NCBI GenBank assembly: GCA_031271635.1
Contig: JAISVG010000084.1
Location: forward strand, 1 to 45,090
DNA length: 45,090 nt
Source: Erysipelotrichaceae bacterium
GTDB taxonomy: Bacteria > Bacillota_I > Bacilli_A > RFN20 > CAG-826
Reading direction: 5' to 3'
This document shows positions 21,422-34,282 of this stretch, piece by piece (the stretch's first letter is position 1; every line of letters begins with the position of its first letter). The notes beneath the pieces are model-generated. The model saw nothing but the letters and a program-made list of their open reading frames with translations. It was not told the DNA's origin and did not search any database. Position numbers and translations under genes: made by a program.

Positions 21422-21506
21422 GCGGTTATGGCGGAACTGGTAGACGCGCTAGACTTAGGATCTAGTGGGGAATCCCGTGCAGGTTCAAGTCCTGTTAACC
21501 GCACCA
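21422..21506 (+). tRNA. tRNA-Leu (anticodon UAG), class II with a long variable arm; integration target of the element
   Basis: Hand fold: GCGGTTA/TAACCGC acceptor, anticodon loop CTTAGGA, variable arm TGGGGAATCCCGT, T-arm GCAGG-TTCAAGT-CCTGT, then ACCA. An extended -10 (TGGTATAAT, 21402-21410) lies upstream. Confidence 0.9.
21490..21506 (+). repeat. attL core (3' end of tRNA-Leu)
   Basis: The 17-nt perfect repeat TCCTGTTAACCGCACCA extends to 22 nt (21485-21506) with one mismatch against 34261-34282. Confidence 0.85.
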
Positions 21507-21517
21507 TATAAAAAATT

Positions 21518-21550
21518 TAGTCCGAATAGTTCGGACTATTTTTAATTTTT
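21518..21550 (+). terminator. Strong hairpin plus T-run just inside attL (terminator for tRNA-Leu; may also end int transcription)
   Basis: TAGTCCGAA-TAG-TTCGGACTA (9-bp stem) is followed by TTTTTAATTTTT. The reverse strand also has a short T-run after the stem. Confidence 0.6.
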
Positions 21551-21562
21551 GAATAGTTTCGT

Positions 21563-21591
21563 GATACACTTTTGATACACTTTTATGTATC
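21563..21591. repeat. GATACAY heptamer array (2 direct + 1 inverted); candidate arm-type integrase sites, attL side
   Basis: GATACACTTTT occurs twice in tandem (21563-21573 and 21574-21584), followed by an inverted ATGTATC (21585-21591). The same heptamer recurs at the attR side. Confidence 0.5.
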
Positions 21592-22689
21592 AGAAGCATC
21601 AATCTTTAACTTAATTTTGCTCTTTAGATCTTCATCTGTAGGAGTATAATAGGTATCTGTTACGTTTGGATTAGAATGGCCTAACCAAGCGGCACGATCA
21701 TACTTATCAAAACCAAGACTTTTAAGATAGAGATTAGAGGATCTTCTAAAGTCATGAATCTTGATACGCTTAAGATTAACGGCTTTAGTATACTCATCAA
21801 GAATTCTTCGAATCGAGGTTTCACCGATTACTAAGGAATTCTTATTCTCTGACTTAAAAAGATAATCTTCCGAATTTGTTTTTTTATCTAATAATAAATA
21901 AAGGGCCTTGATTTCTTTAGTTAATGGATAAACACGATTTGAAGAATTAGTCTTTAGTATTGATTCTACTTGATGGCCTTTACCGGTTTTATTGGTGATA
22001 GATCTTTCAATAAAAACTAGATCATTCATCGTATCAATATCTTGGTGCTTTAATCCCCTTAATTCACCAATTCTAAGGCCATAATAAAAAAGAAGTGAAA
22101 ATAATAATTTATGATCAGTATTTTTAACTGCAGCAATAAATGATAGGAATTCTTCATGAGACCAAAATGATTGCTTATTCGTTTTCTTTAGCGGCACATT
22201 CTTTATCTTCAGAATTGAATAATCGAGATTCTTATCAAGGCCATATTTTGTTAAAAAATCTAAGAATAACTTTAAAGCGGCAATTAACTTAGTTTTATTA
22301 GATAGATTTACCCTCTCAAACTGCATTATGAGCTTACTTAAGGTAAGATTACTGATATTATCCACGCTGAGCCGCTCTAAATGAGGTTTAATGTATTTAT
22401 TAAAAGTTAAAACATGAGTATAAGCCGTTGTGTCACGATATTCTTTTTCTAAGTGACTAAGATAAAGAGGAATTAGTTCATTTATGGTCCACTTCTTTTG
22501 CTTTTTTTCAGTAACACCAAGCGTGAGATTCTCGTAATGGAGAGCTGCAGCAGATAAAGCCTGGGCTTCGCTAGTAAAGCCTCTCCGAAGAAGTTTATCG
22601 CCTTTATAGCAAAGACGGTAATAAAACTGAAGCTTAGGTTTTCCATCAAGGTCTTTTACATAATAAGGATAAACTCTAACGCCTCGCAT
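21583..22689 (-). CDS. int: Tyrosine recombinase / phage integrase
   Basis: The C-terminal catalytic region has RIGELRGL, HDFRRS, LGHSN and TDTYY (R..HxxR..H..Y). An N-terminal arm-binding-like domain is present. I start it at MRGVRVYPYY (22689); the track ORF extends to 22749. Confidence 0.85.
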   Translation of the reverse strand: MRGVRVYPYYVKDLDGKPKLQFYYRLCYKGDKLLRRGFTSEAQALSAAALHYENLTLGVTEKKQKKWTINELIPLYLSHLEKEYRDTTAYTHVLTFNKYIKPHLERLSVDNISNLTLSKLIMQFERVNLSNKTKLIAALKLFLDFLTKYGLDKNLDYSILKIKNVPLKKTNKQSFWSHEEFLSFIAAVKNTDHKLLFSLLFYYGLRIGELRGLKHQDIDTMNDLVFIERSITNKTGKGHQVESILKTNSSNRVYPLTKEIKALYLLLDKKTNSEDYLFKSENKNSLVIGETSIRRILDEYTKAVNLKRIKIHDFRRSSNLYLKSLGFDKYDRAAWLGHSNPNVTDTYYTPTDEDLKSKIKLKIDASDT

Positions 22690-22912
22690 ACATTGGTCTC
22701 CGACAAATTTCTTGAAGTTCATATTTTGAATAGTCAAATCGATGATCATTAATCATTGCTTTAATAAGACGGTTAATATCACCAAAAGAATAACAACTAA
22801 AAAACTTCTCAAGAACCATATCGGCATATTTAAAAAGCGATCTTTCGTCACGAAGGTTACAGGCCAGAATAAACTGCCGCTTTTCATAATCGGTTAAATT
22901 ATAATAATTCAT
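22676..22912 (-). CDS. Small hypothetical protein between rep and int (excisionase/RDF position)
   Basis: Start MNYYNLTDYEK, preceded by AAGGAGA 8 nt upstream. The longer track ORF start (23005) lies inside rep. No motif is recognised. Confidence 0.45.
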   Translation of the reverse strand: MNYYNLTDYEKRQFILACNLRDERSLFKYADMVLEKFFSCYSFGDINRLIKAMINDHRFDYSKYELQEICRRPMYARR

Positions 22913-24083
22913 CTTTAATATTCTCCTTTTTAACAAGCTCGCCAGTAAGGCGATTATAGCCTGGGGACTCAATAAAACGCTTAAGGCTCTCTTTAGCCTC
23001 ATCAAGCGTTACATGAGGTTTACCTTCATGACGGTTCATCTCATTAATAATTGCGAGATCTTTATAAGTAAATTTATCAAGTAACCTTTCACAAGAAATA
23101 GTTTCAATTAAAGAAGCTTTTGAAGGATCATTAATAATAAGTCTTGCTAGAATCATCGAAGCCGCTTTAATAAACCAATCTTTTTGGACGACCAAGGTTT
23201 TTTCAACTTCATACTGGACCTTAATAGATTCCTTAGAAACATTCTTAAGAAGCTTGTCCCATTTAGACCAATTTTCTTCTTTATTACGATTAGAAATATC
23301 ATACTTAAGATTTTGCTTAAAGGCGACTAAACCACCAAGCGAAGCAGCAATTACACGATTAATAGTTTCACTCTCTAAAGCAAGATGAAGTTTAACAAAC
23401 ATTGTTTCAGCGACTTCATCATACCAACGAGCTTCAAATCTGACCCAATCAGCAACATTGACTAAATAGTTCTTTTTCTCACGTTCAGCGGCTTTATTAT
23501 AAATACAAAGTTGTTTTGTTTCGCGACCACCGATATAAAAAGTAAAACCATCATTTTTAGAAATAATTAGTTTTTCTTTAACTTTATCAAGAATTTCAAC
23601 GTCATTAACCGTAATGTTCCACTTTCTGAAGTTAGTAGCATACTCTCTTTTAATGATTTTTTGATAAAGTTCCATCGCTTTAATACTTCCAGAATAATCA
23701 TCAATAGGAGTATCAATTCTCGTTGCTTTAAAACCCATTTTATAAAGCAAATCAAAAACCTTCAGCCAAGGATTATAGGAGTCAGAATTATTATTCTCAA
23801 CATCACGACAAGCATCACCAGATAATAATATTTGAGTACGCCATTCACCATGATTCCGAGGCTCTTCATCAGTAAAGAATTTCACACGACTGCCATAAAG
23901 ATAGCCTTTTTGATAACCATTAAGCGCATGATCCAAAGGAGTATACTCAAAAGGTTCATAGCCTAAGGACCTAATTAATAAAGAAAAATCGTTAGGAGTA
24001 AAAACTAACCTAAAAGTACCACTAACCCAATCGATTAAAGCATTGACTTTAAGATTATCTTGATCTTCTTTTAAATACATCAT
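22899..24083 (-). CDS. rep: Rolling-circle replication initiator, Rep_trans (PF02486)-like
   Basis: The N-terminus ALIDWVSGTFRL and the block ILLSGDACRDVE resemble the IDWLS.TF and SGqgCr signatures of the family that includes pT181 RepC and CTXphi RstA. Recognised from memory only. Confidence 0.6.
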   Translation of the reverse strand: MMYLKEDQDNLKVNALIDWVSGTFRLVFTPNDFSLLIRSLGYEPFEYTPLDHALNGYQKGYLYGSRVKFFTDEEPRNHGEWRTQILLSGDACRDVENNNSDSYNPWLKVFDLLYKMGFKATRIDTPIDDYSGSIKAMELYQKIIKREYATNFRKWNITVNDVEILDKVKEKLIISKNDGFTFYIGGRETKQLCIYNKAAEREKKNYLVNVADWVRFEARWYDEVAETMFVKLHLALESETINRVIAASLGGLVAFKQNLKYDISNRNKEENWSKWDKLLKNVSKESIKVQYEVEKTLVVQKDWFIKAASMILARLIINDPSKASLIETISCERLLDKFTYKDLAIINEMNRHEGKPHVTLDEAKESLKRFIESPGYNRLTGELVKKENIKDELL

Positions 24084-24303
24084 TGAAATTCTTTTCCTTT
24101 CATATTTTAAGACGACTGCCTCGACTAGTCGAGGATATAAGAATATTTAGATAACGATTACTTACGAGCCACACCCCGTATTACTACTGGGGTGTGGCTC
24201 TCTCGGCTTTTAGACTGTAGTAATCTAAAGATTACTAAAGAGTCCCCCAGGACGACATTATAGGGGGTCCTCTCGTAAAAGCCTCACGTTATCACCGCTT
24301 TCA
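24084..24303. promoter_or_regulatory. Structured GC-rich intergenic region upstream of rep (candidate replication origin and/or rep operator)
   Basis: It contains a perfect 16-nt palindrome CCTCGACTAGTCGAGG (24119-24134). A 12-bp perfect stem GAGCCACACCCC/GGGGTGTGGCTC with an 11-nt loop spans 24166-24200. An 8-bp stem TAGTAATC/GATTACTA spans 24218-24237. Confidence 0.5.
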
Positions 24304-26568
24304 TCACCATGAAAGCTCCTCTAGTTTTTCATCTTTCTTTTCTTTCACTCCTGGGCCGCTTGGGCCCTTCTTTTTAAGGCCAGAAAAGAGGCCTTTAAGA
24401 AGCCTCTTAGGCCAATATCCTTCTTGGTACTCAAGATCATCTGAAGAAGGATAAAGGCTCTTAAACTGCGCCGAATGATAAACGGAGACGGTCGCGTCTT
24501 TATAAGTATTTTCAAAGACCGGCTTATAGATATCGGTAGCGAAACGTTCAGAGTAGATCTTCTTTGGTTGAATAAAGTAAGCTACTTTTTTTGACTCTTG
24601 ATCTTTATCTTCTGAACCATGCTTAATGATCAAAGTATAAGACCTACTTTGATAAGTGTTTTCAAAAATAAAGAGCTTTTGCTGCAACTTTGCGGCAATC
24701 TTATTGGCCAAAAAAGAAAGAAGACTAAGATCACGGCGGTTCTCACGGTAGATGCTCCTAAACTCATTAATCTTAGAAAGGACCTTCTTCTGAAGCGGAT
24801 AAAGAAACCAGTTAAAAGGATAAAGGATCTCCGCTTCAGGATCTTTCTCAATTGTAATAATCGTATCAAAGAGATGTCTTATTTTGGCCTGGATATCAGA
24901 TGAGGCTTGCATGTCACAAAAAACCTTAATAAGCGGCTGATGATCAAGGGTTCTTGAATGCCGAATTACCTTATGAAAATCTTGAAAAGAATCATTTAAT
25001 TGATTAACAAAATCATCATCTTTAGAAAGACTCTGAAGGTCGTCTTTATTACCTCTTTCTTTATCGAGTTCCGTGTAAGTAATAACTCCAGAGTCAAAAT
25101 AAGAGATTCGCTCCGGGTCAAACTTTTTGCCAAGACGAAAATCATCATAGTTAATGTTGATCGAAAAAGCTTTAGAATCATAATAAAGAAGATCTACTTC
25201 AGATCTTTCAAAATAGTTATAGTCAAACTTAATAAAATGACCGGTATTAATAGCGACGTGATCATAGTTGATCGGATAGTTTGATGTTGCCAAAGGAACG
25301 TCTTGAATAAAAAGATAATAAGCCTCAAGATAAATTATTAAAGCATCGAAGATAGTAATTATCTTTAGGCCATCATAAGAATGCATCTTATTACTCTTAT
25401 AACCAAAAATAAAAGGCTCATGACCTTTAACATTGGCACGGTCTTTAAGGCTACCATCATGATCAAGACGTTTCCTTGGATAATAATACATAAAGCTTAT
25501 CCGGTCGATGTAGGCCTTAATGTGGACACGATTAAGGATCCTTCCGGCATTGATTTCTTGACGAAGACAAAACTCTAAAAATTCAAAATTAAAATCCGGA
25601 AACATCGTTCCATATTTATTAAGAATCTCAAGAACCGTGAAGCGAACTTTTGCCTCGAAACTCATTGAAAAATCAGTAATTAAAGTAGTCTTCCCGTCTC
25701 CAGGGGGCCCGACAACGCAGTTCATGACACCCATACTAGAAACAGCAGCTTCGTTAAGGGCTTCGCGGTGCATCAGTCTATTAATTCCGGTCCAACGTCG
25801 GACTTTATTAAAGTGTCTAATGACAAAAACAATAATAATGGGCCATAAATAAATTAAGGCCGGGAGAAAATATCTAATAAGCTTTGGAATAAAAGTAAAA
25901 AAAGTCGCATCGAAAGCGAACATATAAACATACATTAAAAATAAAGAAATAATAATCGGGATAGCATTAAGAATAAAACAAGAAACAATGATTAGAGTAA
26001 TTTTAAAAACAAGATTATTGATCAAGAATCTAAAGAACGAAATAACCTCAAATTTAAGTTTATCAAAGTGAATAATCTTATTCCTAATAAACATAAATAC
26101 TTGATAGCCTTTCGTTTCTTTTTGCTTCAGAGTACCGTCTTGAGCCACTAAAGAAGATGACTCATGAGCCGCCATAAAGCAAGTAAACAAGAGCTTCAAA
26201 AAGACATAAACAATAAGCACGATCATGATAATTCTTGTTAACGTCATCAAGAAATTAAGTACTAAAGAAATATAATCAAAGATGTTATCCTGGTTAATTA
26301 AATAAATAGGCCAAACTTTAAGTTGGATTAAGAACATGTTATCAAGAGCAAGCGGCGAAGCATCAATATTAATAATTCTGATCCCGAAAACTGAGATATT
26401 CTCCGGAATCACTAAGTAATCGATTTTTAGGCCAAAGAGACTAAATAAGTCAATAAAAGAGTTAACAAAGTGAAAAGCATTACCGGCGAATAAAAGCACT
26501 GTAACGGCCAAAATAGCAAGAATAATTAAGATCAAAAAAATAATATAAATGGCCTTCCTTAACTTCAC
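24304..26568 (-). CDS. Polytopic-membrane P-loop NTPase (about 6 N-terminal TM helices plus a cytoplasmic ATPase domain)
   Basis: 754 aa. Residues 1-255 are hydrophobic helices. Walker A is VVGPPGDGKTTL (aa 285-296, nt 25687-25710), with a candidate Walker B at GVITYTELDKE. The gene ends in TGA. Confidence 0.65.
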   Translation of the reverse strand: MKLRKAIYIIFLILIILAILAVTVLLFAGNAFHFVNSFIDLFSLFGLKIDYLVIPENISVFGIRIINIDASPLALDNMFLIQLKVWPIYLINQDNIFDYISLVLNFLMTLTRIIMIVLIVYVFLKLLFTCFMAAHESSSLVAQDGTLKQKETKGYQVFMFIRNKIIHFDKLKFEVISFFRFLINNLVFKITLIIVSCFILNAIPIIISLFLMYVYMFAFDATFFTFIPKLIRYFLPALIYLWPIIIVFVIRHFNKVRRWTGINRLMHREALNEAAVSSMGVMNCVVGPPGDGKTTLITDFSMSFEAKVRFTVLEILNKYGTMFPDFNFEFLEFCLRQEINAGRILNRVHIKAYIDRISFMYYYPRKRLDHDGSLKDRANVKGHEPFIFGYKSNKMHSYDGLKIITIFDALIIYLEAYYLFIQDVPLATSNYPINYDHVAINTGHFIKFDYNYFERSEVDLLYYDSKAFSININYDDFRLGKKFDPERISYFDSGVITYTELDKERGNKDDLQSLSKDDDFVNQLNDSFQDFHKVIRHSRTLDHQPLIKVFCDMQASSDIQAKIRHLFDTIITIEKDPEAEILYPFNWFLYPLQKKVLSKINEFRSIYRENRRDLSLLSFLANKIAAKLQQKLFIFENTYQSRSYTLIIKHGSEDKDQESKKVAYFIQPKKIYSERFATDIYKPVFENTYKDATVSVYHSAQFKSLYPSSDDLEYQEGYWPKRLLKGLFSGLKKKGPSGPGVKEKKDEKLEELSW

Positions 26569-26915
26569 TTGATGCTCCTTAAAAGATAAACAAGATTCTT
26601 ATTCTGGTAAAAGATCTTAGCTTCAGATAAAGCAAGTAAAACATGATCAACATCATCGATTTTAAAAATAAAGATTCCTAAGTTAAATTCATAATCAACC
26701 CGAATAATTAAAGAATCATCATGGATCTGAAGCGAGTCTTTCCTGATATAAAAATAACCATCATCTTTACTTTCATAAATGTTACCAATAAAAGAGTCTA
26801 GCTCAAAGTGATAACTAGAAAAGACTGCTTTAGTCGTAACCAATAAATAAGACAAGACAAAAAGGATAATACTAATCAAAAGAATTCTTAAGACTGTAAT
26901 AAATTTTGATTTCAT
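26565..26915 (-). CDS. Small membrane protein (N-terminal TM)
   Basis: 116 aa with the TM segment ITVLRILLISIILFVLSYLLV and the RBS AGGAGGGA. It has an ATGA overlap with the ATPase gene. Confidence 0.5.
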   Translation of the reverse strand: MKSKFITVLRILLISIILFVLSYLLVTTKAVFSSYHFELDSFIGNIYESKDDGYFYIRKDSLQIHDDSLIIRVDYEFNLGIFIFKIDDVDHVLLALSEAKIFYQNKNLVYLLRSIK

Positions 26916-26928
26916 TGTTCCCTCCTAT

Positions 26929-26957
26929 TTGACAAGTCTACTAAGAAAAGTTATAAT
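26929..26957 (+). promoter_or_regulatory. Consensus sigma-70-type promoter on the strand opposite to all surrounding genes
   Basis: TTGACA (26929-26934), a 17-nt spacer, then TATAAT (26952-26957). Confidence 0.45.
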
Positions 26958-26970
26958 ATAAATACAAGTT

Positions 26971-27003
26971 GAGCGGACCTAAGGCACCGCTCCTTTTTTA
27001 TTT
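26971..27003 (+). terminator. Plus-strand rho-independent terminator about 15 nt downstream of that promoter
   Basis: GAGCGG-ACCTAAGGCA-CCGCTC is followed by CTTTTTTATTT. Confidence 0.5.
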
Positions 27004-27345
27004 AAGAAATTTAATTACATAGAAATGATGACGACGTTTAATTTTATGACGACCGATAGATTGGAGATCCTTTAAATTAACAGTAATAACACCTTTACGA
27101 ACTCCAGAAAATTTAGGAAGAGTAAGATCCTCTTTTGGAATCGAGTAAACAGAACCATCCCTTACATAATTGATCTTACCAAGCATATACTTCTGTTTGT
27201 CATATTCTAGAGATGTAAAAGTATTAACATCACAAGTATTACCATTAATAGATCTAATATAAACATAATGGCCCGATTTTAAACCAAGTTTCTTACCATC
27301 AACCCAAGCAATTTTACCCTTAAGTTTTTTATCTTTACTTCCCAT
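26998..27345 (-). CDS. Hypothetical basic 115-aa protein
   Basis: ORF with the RBS AAGGAGAT. The sequence is Lys-rich and looks beta-rich. No family is recognised with confidence. Confidence 0.5.
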   Translation of the reverse strand: MGSKDKKLKGKIAWVDGKKLGLKSGHYVYIRSINGNTCDVNTFTSLEYDKQKYMLGKINYVRDGSVYSIPKEDLTLPKFSGVRKGVITVNLKDLQSIGRHKIKRRHHFYVIKFLK

Positions 27346-27360
27346 AATCTCCTTTACCTT

Positions 27361-27385
27361 AAAAGGGGAGTAAATACCACTCCCC
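27361..27385 (-). terminator. Minus-strand hairpin plus short T-run (intra-operon terminator/attenuator)
   Basis: The minus strand forms GGGGAGT-GGTATTT-ACTCCCC followed by TTTT. Confidence 0.4.
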
Positions 27386-27395
27386 AGAACATTAT

Positions 27396-27836
27396 TTAAT
27401 CGCGATCAATTACGTCGGTCGCGTTGATTTCTTTATCTGGCCTTAAAACCCAGAGCTTAGAAACTTCTTTATCATAAGTTAAAACGTCGACTTGATTCTC
27501 ATCTAAAAAGAAACTATGAGACATATTTCTTCCAAAAGTGACTTCCACTAGATGATACTTTTCTCCGTTAGTCTTTTCACCAAAAGATAATCTTGCTCGG
27601 ACGTTTAATCGCATTTCTTTAGGGACATCTGGAAGATTTAGTTTCAATGAAACTTTAATAGCTTCAGCTTCATCAATTTTTACGCGGCAGTTAAGTCTCC
27701 CAATCATTACAATCGCATAATAATAGGGTAATACCGACTCGCGGCGCTTTTCTTTAACAATCTTGCATGGGAACTTAGCTAAAGCATTATAATCCGCCTC
27801 AGTAAGTTCAATTAGTCTTTTAAATTCTTTTGACAT
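27396..27836 (-). CDS. Hypothetical 146-aa protein
   Basis: ORF with the RBS AAGGAGGAAA. No TM segment and no recognisable motif. Confidence 0.5.
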   Translation of the reverse strand: MSKEFKRLIELTEADYNALAKFPCKIVKEKRRESVLPYYYAIVMIGRLNCRVKIDEAEAIKVSLKLNLPDVPKEMRLNVRARLSFGEKTNGEKYHLVEVTFGRNMSHSFFLDENQVDVLTYDKEVSKLWVLRPDKEINATDVIDRD

Positions 27837-27913
27837 ATATTTTCCTCCTTTATGTCAATGCTCAATTTTTAGATCTTAGAGCTAGATCTATATCGTCCTT
27901 GGGTATTCAAGGA

Positions 27914-29980
27914 TCAATAACGACGTTTAGGCTTACTTGCTTTATTAAGTCTTTTAACATCTTTCTTTAGTTTCTGATGACTTAAAAAGCGGCTAATACG
28001 GCTAATAATACTAATCAAGATGATCAGTAAAATAACACCACCGATAATATAGATAATGGTTAAGAAAGAATCTTTATTATCGTTCCAAAGATCTAGAAGC
28101 TTATCCCACCAAGGACGATCTGGATCATCAATTGGGTCAGCAGGGTCTTCTTGAGGAGTTCCTTCAATCACGATCGTGTCATCTGGATCAAGATCTGGAT
28201 GAATGTTACCATCAAGGTCAATTACTACCGGAAAGCCATATTCATTATTGACCACATGATAGCCGTTAGGGTTACCAGTCAATCTAATCGTCTCTCCGGC
28301 AACAGTTTCATAACGAATCTCATAGGCCGAAAACCAATTAATAAAACTCTTATGAGGCTTAGCGAGGTTGTCATTGACGTAGCCATCGACATACTCAGTG
28401 ACATTCTGGTAACAATAATCATAACTATTACCATCAGAGGCCTTAACTGGGCCTTCCTTAAACCCATCGGTTTGACCACTAATATCAACACCAAAGATTG
28501 GTTCTACAGTGTCAATAAACTCCGTAATTGAGACATCGAGTTTTTGCTTATCAATACTAGGATAAGGAATACTCTGGCCGCTAGAATTACGAAGGACAGA
28601 TTGGCCTTCTTGATAGTAAGCGACAAGTCGAGTGACGTTCTCAATTGGCTTTTGTTTTTCGCGGTCGAAGTAAAAATCAAAACCGAAACGCTGAAGATAG
28701 AATCTAGTATTAACTTCTTGCTCAGCGAAATATTCTTGTACAGTAATTAAACCCACCGTAAGAAGCACCCAGTACCAAGCAATATCAGCATCAGCAACAG
28801 CAGTTTCAACGTCATTAAAGCCAAAAGACTCATGATAAAAAATTCCTTCGGCCATGTCAAACCAATAAACAAACTCAAACGGAACAAAAGTATTAGTTGA
28901 AAGATTGTTAAGGCTAATAGAACCATCTATAACAGCATTAGGCCAACTATCGCCACGGCCAATAGTTACTTCTGTTAATACAATCCGTAACGAATTATTA
29001 ATTATTGGAGCATAATCTTTAATATAAATATGATACTCAAAGCCACCACCATCAAGTGGAAATTGACCAACATCAAGATCATCTTTAGTAAAAATAAAAG
29101 GAGTAACAGCTCCAAGTTCAATATAATAGCCTTTAAAACCGATGGGCCAGAAAGGAGCAAGATCAGAGAGATTACCTGTGATTGAATTAGACACAACGAA
29201 ATCGCCATCAACAACATTCGCTGATGTGATGTCCCAAGGAAGAGCAGCATACTTACCACTCATTGAAAGCGGCATATTAAAACTCACCGCAAAGTTATTA
29301 GTAAGTTGAGTAATACTTCTGATGTTTCGACCAGAAACATCACTTAAAACGGTCGGATAAAAAGTAACACCAAGCCGGAGTTCATATCTAACCCCTGGCA
29401 TCGGCATTGAATAATTAATTGCCGCATAATATGGTCTTAATATCACTCCTTTAGAGCTAGTAAAAGCCAATGAATCAGGACCAACTTTAACATAGACAAG
29501 TGGCACTTCATTAACAAAAAGATAAGGAAGAACTAATTCCTTATCAATTAAAAGCGATTGAAGGTAAGTAAAAGGATTTACCGGATACCAAGGAGACTCA
29601 TAAGCCGGTGAAGTTTCAACCTGAAAGATAAAATTCCAAGTAGAAGCAGATTCGCGAAGATAAAGATTAGCGTTACCGTTCTGATAAGTATAATAATCAG
29701 GATCAAGATCTCCTGGTAAAACGGAAACCGGGAAAACTTCACTTAATAAATCAGTTCTTCCGGTGTATAGAGTGACATAATTTCCAGATCTATTAAATCC
29801 TTCATATGAAAGATCATCCTGAGACATCAAGACCGGAAGCGGAAGCTGCGGGGCGAGCGCAGCATCCACCTCTTGCCAAACAAAATCAGTACTATCTGAA
29901 GCTTGAACAGATAAAGAAATATTAGTATGTAAAGGAATTAAGATTAATAAGCTTAATAATAGTACTAAGATTCTTTTCAT
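27914..29980 (-). CDS. Large type-I membrane protein (signal peptide, ~610-aa ectodomain, C-terminal TM anchor, basic tail); candidate adsorption/fusion protein
   Basis: Signal peptide MKRILVLLLSLLILIPLHTNISLSVQA. C-terminal TM segment FLTIIYIIGGVILLIILISIISRI followed by KLKKDVKRLNKASKPKRRY. A Pro/Asp-rich stalk (PQEDPADPIDDPDRPWW) precedes the anchor. Confidence 0.6.
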   Translation of the reverse strand: MKRILVLLLSLLILIPLHTNISLSVQASDSTDFVWQEVDAALAPQLPLPVLMSQDDLSYEGFNRSGNYVTLYTGRTDLLSEVFPVSVLPGDLDPDYYTYQNGNANLYLRESASTWNFIFQVETSPAYESPWYPVNPFTYLQSLLIDKELVLPYLFVNEVPLVYVKVGPDSLAFTSSKGVILRPYYAAINYSMPMPGVRYELRLGVTFYPTVLSDVSGRNIRSITQLTNNFAVSFNMPLSMSGKYAALPWDITSANVVDGDFVVSNSITGNLSDLAPFWPIGFKGYYIELGAVTPFIFTKDDLDVGQFPLDGGGFEYHIYIKDYAPIINNSLRIVLTEVTIGRGDSWPNAVIDGSISLNNLSTNTFVPFEFVYWFDMAEGIFYHESFGFNDVETAVADADIAWYWVLLTVGLITVQEYFAEQEVNTRFYLQRFGFDFYFDREKQKPIENVTRLVAYYQEGQSVLRNSSGQSIPYPSIDKQKLDVSITEFIDTVEPIFGVDISGQTDGFKEGPVKASDGNSYDYCYQNVTEYVDGYVNDNLAKPHKSFINWFSAYEIRYETVAGETIRLTGNPNGYHVVNNEYGFPVVIDLDGNIHPDLDPDDTIVIEGTPQEDPADPIDDPDRPWWDKLLDLWNDNKDSFLTIIYIIGGVILLIILISIISRISRFLSHQKLKKDVKRLNKASKPKRRY

Positions 29981-29991
29981 GTTTTCTCCTT

Positions 29992-30609
29992 TTAAGAAAT
30001 AACGACTTTGTAATTAACTAGTTCGATATGATAATTCCACTCAATTTCATAAGTAGAAACTGGATTAAAATTATCATCAAAAGTAGTAGCTGCTGAAAGC
30101 TCGAACTTTTCTAAAGTAACATCTAAGCCATCGGCAATAGCACCACTACCAACACTTGCTTGAATAGAGTCATCACCGAAAGGATTAAAATAAATTTCAA
30201 AAATGCCACCGCCTAAATAGATAACAGCAACATCAGTAGAAAGATAAGAAGTAGATTCGGTAGTTGTCTTATCTTCACCAATCGTCGAAGTATAAGCAGT
30301 CAAAATGCTTTTAACTCCGGCGATCGAAGCTACATCATCATCGGCCACACAAATCTTCATTAACTGATAAACGGTGGTTTGATTGTTTTCACCAATTGTT
30401 GGATCATATTCGTAGCCAGGGGCTACAGAAAGCGAAACCGACTCAATATCGCCAACTTCCATATGGCCAGTGATTTTATTGGCCTCATTAACGACTTTGT
30501 CCCAGTTAGCACCTAAGAAGCCAGTACCAACTGCAAGACCTACTGCAGCAAGTAAAACTGCTACAGTAATAACAATAGACTTTGTTTTATTTTGATTGTA
30601 ATGTGACAT
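29992..30609 (-). CDS. Type-II anchored membrane protein (N-terminal TM, 170-aa ectodomain)
   Basis: 205 aa with the TM segment IVITVAVLLAAVGLAVGTGFLGA and the RBS AAGGAGGAC. Confidence 0.55.
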   Translation of the reverse strand: MSHYNQNKTKSIVITVAVLLAAVGLAVGTGFLGANWDKVVNEANKITGHMEVGDIESVSLSVAPGYEYDPTIGENNQTTVYQLMKICVADDDVASIAGVKSILTAYTSTIGEDKTTTESTSYLSTDVAVIYLGGGIFEIYFNPFGDDSIQASVGSGAIADGLDVTLEKFELSAATTFDDNFNPVSTYEIEWNYHIELVNYKVVIS

Positions 30610-30623
30610 ATAGTCCTCCTTTT

Positions 30624-30893
30624 TTAATTAGATAGGTCGTCTAGATCTTCTTCTAAAAAGACTGCAGCGACCCACCTCATGAAGCCGTTACGGCGCTTTA
30701 ATTTTGGAACAGAGATATTACGAATTTTAGCCTGGTGAATAGTTGATCCTTTTTTCTGATTGTAACTTTCAACAGACTTTTTAAGATCTTCCCATGACTC
30801 GCCTTCGGCAAGTTTTTTAGCGATCCATTTTTTGGCCGCTAGAAGTTCCTTTTGATCTTTAGGATGAGGAACTAAGTATTTTTGCTTGAACAC
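30624..30893 (-). CDS. Hypothetical 89-aa protein
   Basis: ORF in the packed co-directional array; basic; no motif recognised. Confidence 0.4.
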   Translation of the reverse strand: MFKQKYLVPHPKDQKELLAAKKWIAKKLAEGESWEDLKKSVESYNQKKGSTIHQAKIRNISVPKLKRRNGFMRWVAAVFLEEDLDDLSN

Positions 30894-30898
30894 AACTT

Positions 30899-31174
30899 TT
30901 ACTTAACACCCAAAGCTTTACAAATTAGATCTTTAATAGTTAAGTAATCTTTAACATGTTTTTTTCCAACAGGAATAAAGAAACCATTTGAACCCTTCTT
31001 AATAGAAGGCTTTACTTTAGAATCGTTAACCATAGGATCGAAGATAACAGTTATTTTTCGACTACCTTTTTCATAAGATCTTCCCATGACTAAATTCTGA
31101 GTCATAATCCCTTTACCAAGAGTTGAAACAGCATGATCAGCAGTAATCTTAAGTTCTTCGTGATCACTTTTCAT
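30899..31174 (-). CDS. Hypothetical 91-aa protein
   Basis: ORF in the packed co-directional array with the RBS AAGGAG upstream. Confidence 0.4.
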   Translation of the reverse strand: MKSDHEELKITADHAVSTLGKGIMTQNLVMGRSYEKGSRKITVIFDPMVNDSKVKPSIKKGSNGFFIPVGKKHVKDYLTIKDLICKALGVK

Positions 31175-31211
31175 AAAACTAATTAATAACTCCTTTAATA
31201 ACTATTTAGAC

Positions 31212-31571
31212 TTAAACACGACGTTTTTTATTAGCAAGAGAAGCAAGCTTCTTTTTTTCAACAAGCTTAGCTTCTTTAGCTTTTAGTTTACGTTCCTGAC
31301 GTTCTTTCTTTTGTTCAGGGGATAAACCAGCAAAGAATGCACTACGACGTGCTTTTGATTTAGATGGTAGACCTTTATTAGCAGCATAAGCTTCAGCTGA
31401 ATCAGTTCTAGCCTGAAGATAACCTTTACGATAAGCAACCTCTTCAGGAGTTAAAATCTCCCCATTTGCATCAACACGATTTTTTAATTGATTCGAATAA
31501 CGTTTGCCCTTTTCAGAAGGATCGAGAAGAACAATTTCGTTACCTCTTTTAGTTTTAACTATAGTACCCAT
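31212..31571 (-). CDS. Highly basic 119-aa protein (candidate nucleic-acid-binding/nucleoprotein)
   Basis: C-terminal KKERQERKLKAKEAKLVEKKKLASLANKKRRV. GGAGGT lies 5 nt before the MGTIVKTK ATG, so the start is 31571 rather than the track's 31583. Confidence 0.55.
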   Translation of the reverse strand: MGTIVKTKRGNEIVLLDPSEKGKRYSNQLKNRVDANGEILTPEEVAYRKGYLQARTDSAEAYAANKGLPSKSKARRSAFFAGLSPEQKKERQERKLKAKEAKLVEKKKLASLANKKRRV

Positions 31572-31704
31572 ATGTACCTCCATTAATTAATGCAGGCGGA
31601 TCTTGCTAGTTTGCCGCGGTCAGTAACTCACCGCCTGACTCATTTTTTTTATGAAAGCATTCTTTATTCTTTAGATGCGCGGCCATCTTAAAGAAACAAA
31701 ATAA

Positions 31705-31938
31705 TTAATTAGTTTCCGGCAAGTCCTCCTTTAGTTCAACTCCGAAATATGAAAGAAGATACTCATATTCTTCTTTAGAAATATACCAACCACGATACCA
31801 ACCACGTCTAAAATTAGATCTTTTCTCTGCTGCAAAATAAATAATTTCGCCATTTTTCTCAACATGAGAATAAAAACAAATAATAGACTTAATCGGAACA
31901 ACAACATCACCAAGACTAATAATCGCTTCTCTTTTCAT
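31705..31938 (-). CDS. Hypothetical 77-aa protein
   Basis: The ORF abuts the stop of the upstream 366-aa gene (stop and start are adjacent). The same-strand overlapping ORF 31731-31913 was rejected. Confidence 0.4.
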   Translation of the reverse strand: MKREAIISLGDVVVPIKSIICFYSHVEKNGEIIYFAAEKRSNFRRGWYRGWYISKEEYEYLLSYFGVELKEDLPETN

Positions 31939-33039
31939 TTAGATCTCCTTTTCTTTTAACTGATTAATCATTGAACCTAGTTCGATTCTCTCAAAAATAT
32001 ATGAACCAGAATACTTATAATCTAACTTCCGGTAATTCTGAAAGGCTTCTTTACCATCTTTATCCGCTGCAGTAAAAATAAACCATGAGAATAATTCATG
32101 GAGCTTATCATTAATGAGCCGGTAGAATTTAAAACCTAAAGTCTTGGCTTCATCAACTAAAAGCCAATTATCAGGATTCTTAATAAATTCTTCACGTTGT
32201 TTATCATTTTTAAGAGTTTGATTAGGGTTACGTTTTTTAGTAACAGCTTTAACATCATTACCTTTTTCAAATTTTTTAGGAGCGAATAATTCAGTTAATT
32301 TATCTTTTAGGTTTAAAAAAAATTTATCAAGTTTTTTTGAATTTTCAATAAAAAAATGTTTGAAATTATCTTTAATATAAAAACCACCTAAAGAATAAAC
32401 CGAAGTTTCTAAATTAAGATTTAATTGGATCTTTAAATCTTTTTTTTCTAAGAAGCTAAATAAGATTTCATATATGAAATAAAATGAATTAGAATTATTA
32501 ACTTTACTAAATTTTATATCTTTAACATGACTCTTTTCAGGAATAAAAGGAAAAGCTTTAAACCAAGCTTGTTTAATTTCTTCTTCTAAAGCAAGATAAG
32601 AGTCGGACGTCCGACCTGATTTTTTAATCTCACGGATTTTCCTAATTGTAAAAGTTGCAGGAAGATTCTTCCTATCATCTTCAGGAATAGAAAGAAGTTC
32701 TGTTAATTGAGAAAAGGAATAATCTTTATATTCCTTCTTTAGTTCTAAGGAATACATTGAGTCATCTTGATTAGAAAAAGTGATATATACTCGAATTAAA
32801 TTTTTGATAGTTGTAAGAGAAAGATTAAATCTTTCCTTTGCAAAGTCTTCAATTGTTTCATAATTAGCAGTTAAATAAAGTTTTTCATCTCTAATCTTAG
32901 AAAGTCTAGAACCAATTCTTAAAAATTGTTTTTCAATCTCTCCCATCGATGCATCAATGGAAGAAGAAAGATCTACCAATTTTTGATAATTTTTGATTAA
33001 TGTGAAACTATCATTTAATTCGGTATTATTTTTTGCCAT
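31939..33039 (-). CDS. First gene of the long leftward operon; 366-aa protein of unknown function
   Basis: RBS AAAGGAG. The N-terminal ~90 aa (FLRIGSRLSKIRDEKLY...YETIEDFAKERFNLSLTTIKNLIRVY) weakly resemble HTH/ParB-like early-phage DNA-binding modules. Confidence 0.55.
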   Translation of the reverse strand: MAKNNTELNDSFTLIKNYQKLVDLSSSIDASMGEIEKQFLRIGSRLSKIRDEKLYLTANYETIEDFAKERFNLSLTTIKNLIRVYITFSNQDDSMYSLELKKEYKDYSFSQLTELLSIPEDDRKNLPATFTIRKIREIKKSGRTSDSYLALEEEIKQAWFKAFPFIPEKSHVKDIKFSKVNNSNSFYFIYEILFSFLEKKDLKIQLNLNLETSVYSLGGFYIKDNFKHFFIENSKKLDKFFLNLKDKLTELFAPKKFEKGNDVKAVTKKRNPNQTLKNDKQREEFIKNPDNWLLVDEAKTLGFKFYRLINDKLHELFSWFIFTAADKDGKEAFQNYRKLDYKYSGSYIFERIELGSMINQLKEKEI

Positions 33040-33149
33040 GTTCGAACTCCTTTGTGCAATGAAAGCACATTATGATTATATTATGAGAATAATTGACACA
33101 AATGTCAATCAAAATGTGCAATCAAAGAACAAAAAAGTAAAATTAAAAT
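33040..33149. promoter_or_regulatory. Divergent promoter/operator region (genetic-switch-like)
   Basis: The palindrome TTGACAcaaaTGTCAA (33093-33108) gives back-to-back -35 boxes. The leftward promoter is TTGACA-17 nt-CATAAT, with the -10 at 33080-33085 on the minus strand. The repeat TGTGCAAT(G/C)AAAG occurs at 33053-33065 and 33115-33127. Confidence 0.5.
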
Positions 33150-33500
33150 ATGAAAATGCTTTTAAAGCTAAGAAAACAATACAAAAAAACACAAGAAGAA
33201 GTAGCTAAAGCAATTTATATGGACAGATCTCAGTATAGCAAAATAGAAAACGGAAAAATGGGAATTGCTTTCGATCAAATATTACTTTTATCAAAATTTT
33301 ACGGAATATCATTAGCAGCATTTGGAAGTGATAACGAAGAATTAATTGTATTAACAAAAAACCAATACAAACTTTTAATACAAGTTAAAAACATGATAGA
33401 AGATCTTGAAAGAGGGCAAAATATAACAGATAATTTTAAAGATTCAACAATTAATGGAGATGTTGTAATAGGACATAACAACATAATAAAAAAAAAGTAA
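33150..33500 (+). CDS. XRE/cI-family HTH repressor
   Basis: LRKQYKKTQEEVAKAIYMDRSQYSKIENGKMGIAFDQILLLSKFYGISL is a canonical HTH_3 pattern. The gene is divergent from the long operon. Confidence 0.8.
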   Translation: MKMLLKLRKQYKKTQEEVAKAIYMDRSQYSKIENGKMGIAFDQILLLSKFYGISLAAFGSDNEELIVLTKNQYKLLIQVKNMIEDLERGQNITDNFKDSTINGDVVIGHNNIIKKK

Positions 33501-33518
33501 TCATAAAAAAGGAGTATT

Positions 33519-34139
33519 ATGGCAAAAATTTGTAAAATATGTGGAAAACAAGGGTACATGTACTTTCAATATTGTTATGAACACTTACAACAAATAAAAA
33601 AAGAAGGACAAAATAGTGAAGAAAAAAAAGAAAACACGTGCAAAAAATGTGGAAAACCAAGTGGAGAATATGATCTATGCTATAAATGCTATAGAACAAA
33701 AGTTGAAGAAGATCTAAAGCAAGACAGAAGCATATTAATTCAAAGCGAAAAAGATAGCGGAATTGATATTAGAGATAAATGGCCAGCAGAAATAAGAACA
33801 ATACAAGGGTGTAAAGTAAGAAGTCATGCAGAATGCAGAATAGCAGACTGGCTATACTCACAAGAAGTAAGATATGATTACGAAAGACAACTATATAAAA
33901 AAGACGACGTAGAGAAATTTTTACTTTCGGATTTTTTTCTTCCTGATTACAAAATCTACATAGAGTACTGGGGATATAAAGATAGCGAAACATACAACAA
34001 AAGAAGAGAAGAAAAAATGCAAATATACAAATTTAACGAATGCATAGTTGAACACCTACAAGACAGGGATCTAAAAGTTTTAGACGACGCACTAAGAGCG
34101 ATTGCAATAAAACACGGTATCAAACTAAAGAACCCGTGA
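33519..34139 (+). CDS. Two zinc fingers plus a PD-(D/E)XK-like (restriction-endonuclease fold) domain protein
   Basis: CKICGKQGYMYFQYCYEH and CKKCGKPSGEYDLCYKCY are followed by SHAECRIADWLYSQEVRYDYERQ...LSDFFLPDYKIYIEYWGYK. The latter resembles the nuclease-fold module seen at the N-terminus of helicase IV-type proteins. RBS AAAGGAG; 18 nt downstream of the repressor. Confidence 0.55.
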   Translation: MAKICKICGKQGYMYFQYCYEHLQQIKKEGQNSEEKKENTCKKCGKPSGEYDLCYKCYRTKVEEDLKQDRSILIQSEKDSGIDIRDKWPAEIRTIQGCKVRSHAECRIADWLYSQEVRYDYERQLYKKDDVEKFLLSDFFLPDYKIYIEYWGYKDSETYNKRREEKMQIYKFNECIVEHLQDRDLKVLDDALRAIAIKHGIKLKNP

Positions 34140-34156
34140 TACATTACATGATACAT
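34138..34156. repeat. GATACAT x2 direct repeats; candidate arm-type integrase sites, attR side
   Basis: GATACAT occurs at 34138-34144 and 34150-34156. A 10-bp AT-rich inverted repeat AAATATTCAA-TAG-TTGAATATTT lies at 34218-34240. Confidence 0.45.
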
Positions 34157-34265
34157 AACTATTTTATTCAAAAGAATAAATAATATTAATGTGATTCTCA
34201 ACCACAAAAAATAAGTTAAATATTCAATAGTTGAATATTTATACTTAAATAATTGAAAGATCAAT

Positions 34266-34282
34266 TCCTGTTAACCGCACCA
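34266..34282 (+). repeat. attR core (duplicate of the tRNA-Leu 3' end)
   Basis: TCCTGTTAACCGCACCA is identical to 21490-21506. Confidence 0.85.

Follow-up and report, generated by a model that had tools for sequence, protein, structure and literature searches.

A 220-nt intergenic gap (24084-24303) in a contig from an Erysipelotrichaceae bacterium is probably the origin region for rolling-circle replication of a 12.8-kb element integrated at a tRNA-Leu gene. The contig (GenBank assembly GCA_031271635.1, JAISVG010000084.1, positions 1 to 45,090 of the forward strand) was analysed over its whole 45,090 nt, which we call the window. The element spans positions 21490-34282 and has at both borders a 17-bp direct repeat that is the 3′ end of tRNA-Leu(UAG). 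The gap lies between the gene of a membrane ATPase and rep, the gene of the putative replication initiator, and its central feature is a hairpin in whose loop Rep is predicted to cut the minus strand. The original prediction, made from the nucleotide sequence alone, was that a Rep_trans-type initiator nicks a hairpin loop next to its own gene. This proposal gained support from an intact Rep, from hairpins found at the same place and on the same strand in relatives, with covarying stems and a conserved loop motif, and from the published layout of such origins.

The Rep amino acid sequence matched the Pfam family PF02486 (Rep_trans) with an E value of 7e-24, as well as PF18106 (Rol_Rep_N), and matched the Rep of PDB entry 4CIJ with an E value of 1e-5. 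There were also weak matches to the Reps of the Stenotrophomonas filamentous phages SMA7 and phiSHP2. Four catalytic motifs have been described for the Rep_trans family (PMC5714925), and the motifs R122-I-D124, T181-F-Y-I-G185, Y195-N-K-A-A-E200, and W213-V-R-F-E217 occur once each in Rep. The residues D18, R122, D124, G185, Y195, K197, E200, W213, R215, and E217 were invariant among 13 homologues, as were the four motifs. Judged by its sequence, Rep appears to be a bona fide, intact Rep_trans rolling-circle initiator with Tyr195 as the predicted catalytic residue.

The candidate nick-site hairpin (24166-24200) has a perfect stem of 12 bp (GAGCCACACCCC/GGGGTGTGGCTC) with nine G:C pairs, and its loop reads AGTAGTAATAC on the minus strand, from 24188 down to 24178 (AGTAGT'AATAC, where the apostrophe marks the predicted cut). 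No perfect hairpin elsewhere in the 45-kb window reaches 12 bp, which makes this one the longest; the average number of that length or more in first-order Markov surrogates was 0.05. The distance from the hairpin to the rep start is 82 nt. In double-strand origins (dso) of Rep_trans replicons and origins of transfer (oriT) of the MOB_T type, a G/C-rich hairpin carries in its loop a conserved CT'AA at which the strand is nicked (PMC9371924). By analogy, the nick is predicted to occur in GT'AA, between T24183 and A24182 on the minus strand, which is the sense strand for rep and for 14 leftward genes. The core T'AATA is kept in the loop and the base at position -2 is G; since the loop has GT'AA and not CT'AA, the nick position is an analogy.

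Relatives of Rep were searched for in genomes of the same order (301) and family (401), in a protein index, and in one scan of a genome collection. About 57 loci with Rep homologues (21-42% identity) were found, and the order ATPase-then-Rep is conserved in many of them. Searches by protein found no close Rep relatives in IMG/VR and the Joint Genome Institute (JGI) metagenomes, and the index of 5.8 billion proteins contained one relative each for Rep and for the ATPase, both on the same contig (L063, described below). Enough upstream sequence was available at 45 non-redundant loci, which were inspected from -130 to +30 nt of the extrapolated Rep N-terminus for perfect, G/C-rich hairpins of at least 6 bp carrying [AGT]GTAA[TC] or CTAA on the rep-sense strand. 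Such a hairpin was found upstream of rep at 30 of the 45, with 25 different stems, and the density of these hairpins near rep was about 195 times that elsewhere in the loci. They lie only 10-50 nt from the rep start or inside the open frame. The loop keeps (A/G)GTAA(T/C) while the stem sequence varies, and the consensus of this main class is GGGGGGT-TGAGTAAT-ACCCCCC. Most relatives have GT'AA; CTAA takes its place at four loci, two of them reading GGCTATCTCTAATAGCC. Several further loci have bulged versions (e.g., GGGGATGAGTAACACCC in L004-L006).

An ungapped alignment of 12 hairpins was used to look for covariation, and compensatory changes were found in 9 of the 12 stem pairs. None of 500 shuffles reached the observed pairing, compensatory-cell count, or covariation score, and all covariation measures collapsed when the 3′ partners were slid by 1-3 columns. 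A covariance model built from the 12 hairpins identified one site per locus, always at rep. The covariation supports the notion that the stem is a selected structure, and the comparison across homologous elements was positive for the central hairpin in both conservation and covariation. The only hit of the model in the window (E=0.4) was a second AGTAATAC at 29309-29316 on the plus strand, inside the gene of a 688-aa surface protein, which was judged to be due to chance.

The window hairpin represents a subclass that we take from the sequences to be real. Its stem has the C-run on the 5′ side, reversing the polarity of the main class, and its loop is longer (11 nt); the loop motif AGTAATAC is identical to the core of the consensus GAGTAATAC. 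The layout of the subclass, a 5′ C-run, a loop ending in AGTAATAC or AGTAATTAC, and then GGGG, recurs beside Rep. In L063, the nearest relative (Logan contig, SRR23593172), with 42% identity in Rep and 43% in the ATPase, the hairpin CCCACACCCCG-GTAAGTAATTA-CGGGGTGTGGG is located 68 nt before rep. In L157/L234, a JGI metagenome locus with homologues of both the ATPase and Rep, the hairpin CTGCACCACACCCC-ATTTAGTAATAC-GGGGTGTGGTGCAG is found at the 5′ end of rep. Comparison of the window with these two showed that the inner nine pairs are identical and that the outer ones show compensatory changes from G:C to C:G, G:C to A:T, and A:T to C:G. The loci L215/L219, where Rep is adjacent, and L123/L183 have ACACCCC-...[TA]GTAATAC-GGGGTGT, and L123 has an unconfirmed Rep-like DWY motif. 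The metagenome members were found with a pattern, matched at least 119 times, that fixed the stem and GTAAT; therefore, what counts as independent is the presence of Rep (and the ATPase) next to the hairpin. A scan of IMG/VR for the stem CCACACCCC...GGGGTGTGG was discarded as a source of members: it returned 32 contigs, all with unrelated loops and no Rep, and a stem copy containing CT'AAT (L095) lay inside a phage open reading frame (ORF).

The L063 contig is 8,245 nt long, and 24 nt are repeated exactly at its two ends, which implies a circle of 8,221 bp. It carries seven to eight genes, none of them called as an integrase, and has a single long noncoding stretch, the 337-nt gap with the hairpin between the ATPase gene and rep. 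Besides the ATPase and Rep, it encodes homologues of the 146-aa and 116-aa proteins of the window and an 829-aa protein. The contig may be a sister element in its free, episomal form. Two observations concern the hairpins themselves. In a MAFFT alignment, the 5′ arm and loop start of the window hairpin (GAGCCACACCCCAGTAG) align with the main-class nick motif and 3′ arm (GAGTAACACCCCCCTAG), which hints that the reversed-polarity hairpin was built as a new stem around an old 3′ arm; a low-complexity artefact is an equally good explanation. At L157:7830-7990 the nick-type hairpin stands inside the rep frame, about 30 codons before the conserved N-terminal IDY motif, and the frames of several relatives are open across the hairpin, so either their rep starts are mis-set or the origin lies within the gene.

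The gap as a whole was also found to be unusually structured (Table 1). Its GC content is 42% (48% in its core), compared with 33.5% in the element and 36% in the window; the earlier description of the gap as GC-rich is correct in relative terms. Folded as single-stranded DNA, the minus strand reached -42.3 kcal/mol (z -7.0) and the plus strand -40.9 kcal/mol (z -6.8). Dinucleotide shuffles of the gap reached about -19 to -20 kcal/mol, and none of 200 folded as well as the gap. In 0.5% of the sequence, the gap holds 4 of the 28 hairpins of at least 8 bp present in the window. The three structures first noticed there, the palindrome and two stems, were all located again, the stem at 24218-24237 being a perfect 9 bp and not 8 bp. 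To these were added the C5/G5 hairpin, two enclosing stems, the 17-nt direct repeats, and the copies of AGTAAT, which number four in the gap against 0.30 expected, three of them on the minus strand and one of these in the large loop. ORFs above 24 aa and Rfam matches at E<=1 are both absent from the gap, in agreement with its description as noncoding; a hidden small ORF and a small RNA or Rfam family were rejected as its identity on these grounds. Likewise, the view that its structures would make poor terminators was borne out, as no intrinsic-terminator-like site was detected in the gap. An intrinsic terminator was rejected as the identity of the nick hairpin because no T-run follows it in the window or in the relatives.

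Table 1. Location of the features of the candidate origin region and of the neighbouring genes and element borders (window coordinates).
Feature	Position	Strand	Description
Element-border direct repeats, 17 bp	21490-21506 and 34266-34282		tRNA-Leu 3′ end
Tyrosine integrase gene	21583-22749		Inside the 12.8-kb element
rep	22899-24083	minus	394 aa, ATG at 24083
Intergenic candidate origin region	24084-24303	minus (gene-sense)	Between the membrane ATPase gene and rep
Weak sigma-70-like promoter match, TCGACT-17-TAAAAT	24104-24132	minus	9/12 match; followed by AAAGGA, resembling a ribosome-binding site, and then the rep ATG at 24083
Perfect 16-nt palindrome, CCTCGACTAGTCGAGG	24119-24134		31 nt downstream of the nick hairpin; overlaps the -35 of the promoter-like match
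Enclosing stem	about 24150-24156/24287-24293		
17-nt direct repeat, downstream copy, CTCGTAAGTAATCGTTA	24152-24168	minus	Abuts the 3′ arm of the nick hairpin; contains AGTAAT
Candidate nick-site hairpin (resembling inverted repeat II, IR-II)	24166-24200	minus	Stem arms 24166-24177/24189-24200, 11-nt loop
Enclosing stem	24205-24212/24276-24283		
AT-rich hairpin 2	24215-24240		9 bp perfect with a 2-nt loop at 24218-24237; 12-nt arms with one mismatch (92%)
17-nt direct repeat, upstream copy, CTCTTTAGTAATCTTTA	24226-24242	minus	Overlaps hairpin 2
C5/G5 hairpin, AGAGGACCCCC-14 nt-GGGGGACTCT	24240-24274	minus	Seen in minimum free energy folds
Membrane ATPase gene	24304-26568	minus	754 aa, upstream neighbour of rep

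The 17-nt direct repeats flank the large hairpin and are identical at 14 of 17 positions (82%) in the repeat search. The downstream copy contains a nick-like GTAAGTAATCG. In known systems, a protein-binding inverted repeat is found downstream of the nick hairpin: IR-III stands beside it in pT181, and IR2, the binding site of RelSt3, is 68 bp away in ICESt3 (PMC9371924). By its placement, which is like that of IR-III, the repeat abutting the hairpin is a candidate binding site for Rep. The palindrome CCTCGACTAGTCGAGG is unique in the window even when three mismatches are allowed, but L063 lacks it and the relatives show nothing that consistently corresponds to it; our guess is that it is a lineage-specific binding site for Rep or an operator. 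The original prediction saw in it a possible operator overlapping a weak rep promoter. The promoter-like sequence is there, as the sole match in the gap, at a number no higher than shuffles give, and the idea of a conserved operator was abandoned since the palindrome is missing from the nearest relative and from the family generally. A palindrome TCGACCACTGGTCGA at L157:7729-7748, about 110 nt upstream of the L157/L234 hairpin, has the half-sites TCGAC/GTCGA in common with CCTCGACTAGTCGAGG; nothing like it was seen near the hairpin in any other family member, and it may be a coincidence.

Hairpin 2 has AGTAAT in one arm and ATTACT in the other. In rolling-circle plasmids and Ff phages, the lagging-strand origin and the packaging signal are located where the upstream hairpins of the gap stand, and our guesses for hairpin 2 are either of these two functions or the binding of Rep. 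L063 has, at comparable positions, an AT-rich palindrome reminiscent of hairpin 2 and a C-run/G-run element reminiscent of the C5/G5 hairpin; neither the 17-nt repeat nor the 16-nt palindrome is conserved there. Many relatives have only 50-140 nt between the ATPase gene and rep, so the upstream hairpins are not general. The palindrome, hairpin 2, and the flanking repeats are lineage-specific, and their roles are only inferred.

Replication of the element could proceed as follows. The integrase would excise and circularize the element, and negative supercoiling would extrude the G/C-rich inverted repeat at 24166-24200 as a cruciform, exposing AGTAGT'AATAC as a single-stranded loop on the minus strand. 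Rep would dock on nearby DNA, for which the 17-nt repeat abutting the hairpin and/or the 16-nt palindrome are the best candidates. It would then cut the loop, most likely between T24183 and A24182, with Tyr195 becoming joined to the 5′ phosphate. The free 3′-OH would prime leading-strand synthesis, displacing the sense strand, and the regenerated hairpin would terminate the round. The upstream hairpins might act as a lagging-strand origin or a packaging signal.

Several points count against this interpretation. The covariance model of the main class did not detect the window hairpin and, given the reversed polarity and the longer loop, what ties it to the main class as a homologue is its loop motif, position, and strand. 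The loop has GT'AA and not the canonical CT'AA. About a third of the Rep loci are without a perfect hairpin, some of them having bulged ones. The hairpins were picked partly for being perfect, which inflates the pairing statistics of the inner pairs, and only the outer pairs are an unbiased test. Most of the metagenome pattern matches are chance or terminators, and Rep adjoins in L157/L234 and L215/L219 only. Finally, conservation is lacking for the palindrome, hairpin 2, and the direct repeats, and the binding-site, lagging-strand, and packaging roles given to them are guesses.

The membrane ATPase has about 255 residues of N-terminal membrane helices followed by a P-loop nucleoside triphosphatase (NTPase) domain with the Walker A sequence GPPGDGKT. 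It had no match in Pfam, NCBIfam, PHROG, or the PDB sequences. The residues invariant in its family are G290 and K293 (Walker A), E500, K503, and N507 (in hhhhSE..KERGN), N522, D526, D552, and Q554. Its AlphaFold model had a pLDDT (predicted local distance difference test) of 70, and Foldseek found no significant structural match. The weak top fold matches were viral genome-packaging ATPases (STIV2 B204 and A32-like), HerA, Zot, and the Acholeplasma phage L2 protein P42538. The Zot family (PF05707) and PHROG gave no match to the ATPase, with fold hits to Zot only at E>0.3, and Acholeplasma phage L2 was not among the matches when a phage collection was searched by tblastn with Rep or the ATPase. 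Two overlapping terminator-like sites (GGGCCGCTTGGGCCC, then a T-rich tail) are present on the plus strand at 24350-24367, antisense to the 3′ end of the ATPase gene. The element has a divergent XRE-type regulator at its far end, and the host assembly is 0.95 Mb and 66% complete.

Named carriers of the same ATPase are metagenome-assembled genomes (MAGs) of gut Clostridia, including Christensenella sp. UBA1259, Ca. Caccovivens, Oscillospiraceae, and Ruminococcus, and many of the ATPase-bearing loci in such MAGs have no Rep_trans homologue downstream. Two sister elements were examined, L072 and L064, and both have an HUH Rep of the REP_ORF2-G2P/Phage_GPA type, rather than Rep_trans, after the same ATPase. 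L072 (3456-8264) has an rve (DDE) integrase after the HUH Rep, and a second copy, L074, is found on the same contig about 10.8 kb away. A PcfJ-like gene is near L064 (3498-6676). These arrangements suggest an element family with exchangeable initiator and integration modules.

The gap could instead be an oriT, with Rep acting as a MOB_T-type relaxase and the ATPase as a coupling protein to a conjugation pore of the element or of a helper. The nicking chemistry would be the same as at a replication origin, and both roles can coexist. The order of a membrane NTPase gene, a G/C-rich hairpin, a Rep_trans gene, and an integrase next to a tRNA gene mirrors that of the integrative and conjugative elements (ICEs) ICEBs1, Tn916, and ICESt3. 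The nic of these ICEs is at CT'AA, within a G/C-rich hairpin loop, and rolling-circle replication is a further function of their relaxases (PMC9371924). There was also a weak match of Rep to the NCBIfam MobT model, at 31.7 bits against a cut-off of 600 bits. Nonetheless, we consider this explanation unlikely. No VirB4, type IV secretion system (T4SS), or FtsK_SpoIIIE/TcpA match was found with Pfam and NCBIfam in any ORF of 21490-34282. Rep has no N-terminal helix-turn-helix (HTH) domain, the part that MOB_T relaxases use for binding to oriT, and has Rol_Rep_N there instead. The ATPase matched no coupling protein by sequence or fold, L072 and L064 have the phage-type HUH G2P Reps in place of Rep_trans, and the nearest relative is an apparent circle of 8.2 kb with seven to eight genes. 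Vegetative rolling-circle replication is favoured over conjugative transfer because of the lack of conjugation genes, the Rep without HTH, the sister elements with HUH Reps, and the L063 circle. A dual role in replication and transfer, or helper-dependent mobilization, may apply.

A second explanation is that the hairpins act at the level of RNA or transcription only, as a processing or stability element, an attenuator, or an operator of rep, with no nicking involved. The gap is the leader of rep, the promoter-like match overlaps the palindrome, and the relatives' hairpin is close to the rep start or within the frame. In plasmids of the pT181 type, rep is regulated by leader structures, a precedent for such a role. 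We regard this explanation as very improbable. There is no T-run after the hairpin in the window or in the relatives, no Rfam family was matched, and the promoter match is at chance level. Furthermore, loop conservation amid variable stems, together with the presence in the loop of T'AATA, the known Rep_trans nick core, fits a sequence-specific DNA cleavage site and not a generic RNA hairpin.

A third explanation places the true origin at another site and sees in the hairpin a degenerate or secondary copy, such as a pseudo-origin kept for termination or recombination. It draws on the reversed polarity missed by the main-class model, the resemblance of the 5′ arm GAGCCACACCCCAGTAG to the main-class GAGTAACACCCCCCTAG as a hint of a rebuilt structure, and the nick-like GTAAGTAATCG just outside the stem. 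It deserves hardly any credence: the window has no other hairpin of comparable strength, the element's only other AGTAATAC (29309) is coding with a model E value of 0.4, and the reversed-polarity hairpin is kept beside Rep in L063 and L157 with compensatory changes.

The reading of the gap as a rolling-circle origin assigns a likely replication start and strand to a previously uncharacterized family of integrated elements of gut Clostridia, with a prediction at the level of single residues (nick at 24183/24182, Tyr195). The feature belongs to a known kind, the Rep_trans origin, and its twists, GT'AA for CT'AA and a presenting stem in either polarity, are modest. That a Rep_trans nick hairpin would tolerate G for C before the cut, and a reversal of stem polarity with the loop kept, should help in the automatic finding of origins. 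The mechanism is textbook; the wider interest lies in the element family, with its orphan membrane ATPase and exchangeable initiators. A broader interpretation makes the gap a complete Ff-like control region, in which the upstream hairpins would serve as packaging signal and lagging-strand origin, the nick hairpin would be the leading-strand origin, and a site for Rep or an operator would follow downstream. On this view, small-genome gut Clostridia would harbour temperate rolling-circle elements without tails that form an undescribed family, defined by a membrane-embedded ATPase that is an orphan in Pfam. Its members could exchange Rep_trans and HUH initiators, and those with Rep_trans would use the GT'AA motif, presented by a stem that can be rebuilt in either polarity. 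We advance it tentatively and find it rather doubtful.

The closest known counterpart is the dso of pT181, whose nick sequence is CTCT'AATAG and which is located within repC. Both systems have a Rep_trans initiator with the same catalytic motifs encoded beside the origin (in pT181, over it), a G/C-rich inverted repeat with the nick in the loop (nick and extrusion being only predicted in the window), the core T'AATA around the nick, and a repeat directly 3′ of the hairpin, where IR-III stands. The loops of L019, L022, and L012 are almost identical to that of pT181, and in some relatives, such as L157, the hairpin is inside the rep frame. Unlike pT181, the window has G and not C before the T of the predicted nick and a 12-bp stem whose 5′ arm has the C-run; the replicon is not a small plasmid but an integrase-bearing element of 12.8 kb inserted at a tRNA gene, and no antisense-RNA control region is evident. 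The oriT regions of ICEBs1, Tn916, and ICESt3 (relaxases NicK, Orf20, and RelSt3, respectively) are similar in that a nic, predicted in the window, lies in the loop of a G/C-rich hairpin directly upstream of a PF02486 gene and downstream of the gene of a membrane-anchored NTPase, in an element integrated beside a tRNA gene. ICESt3 also has a second inverted repeat downstream of nic (IR2 at 68 bp; the window palindrome is at 31 nt). The window differs from them in having a Rep without the N-terminal HTH, no T4SS, an ATPase not recognizably like FtsK/TcpA, the GT'AA motif, and two examined sister elements that exchange Rep_trans for a phage-type HUH Rep.

The third comparison is with the intergenic region of filamentous phages (Ff; CTXphi). 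The topology of the window ATPase is opposite to that of pI/Zot and there is no Zot match. In position and strand the two are alike: a hairpin-dense noncoding region lies between the gene of an ATPase, of the morphogenesis type in the phages and a mere candidate for that type in the window, and a rolling-circle rep gene, and the nicked strand, which is a prediction for the window, is the gene-sense strand. CTXphi uses the Rep_trans protein RstA. As in Ff, where the packaging signal and the minus-strand origin precede the nick hairpin, several hairpins stand upstream of the candidate nick hairpin of the window.

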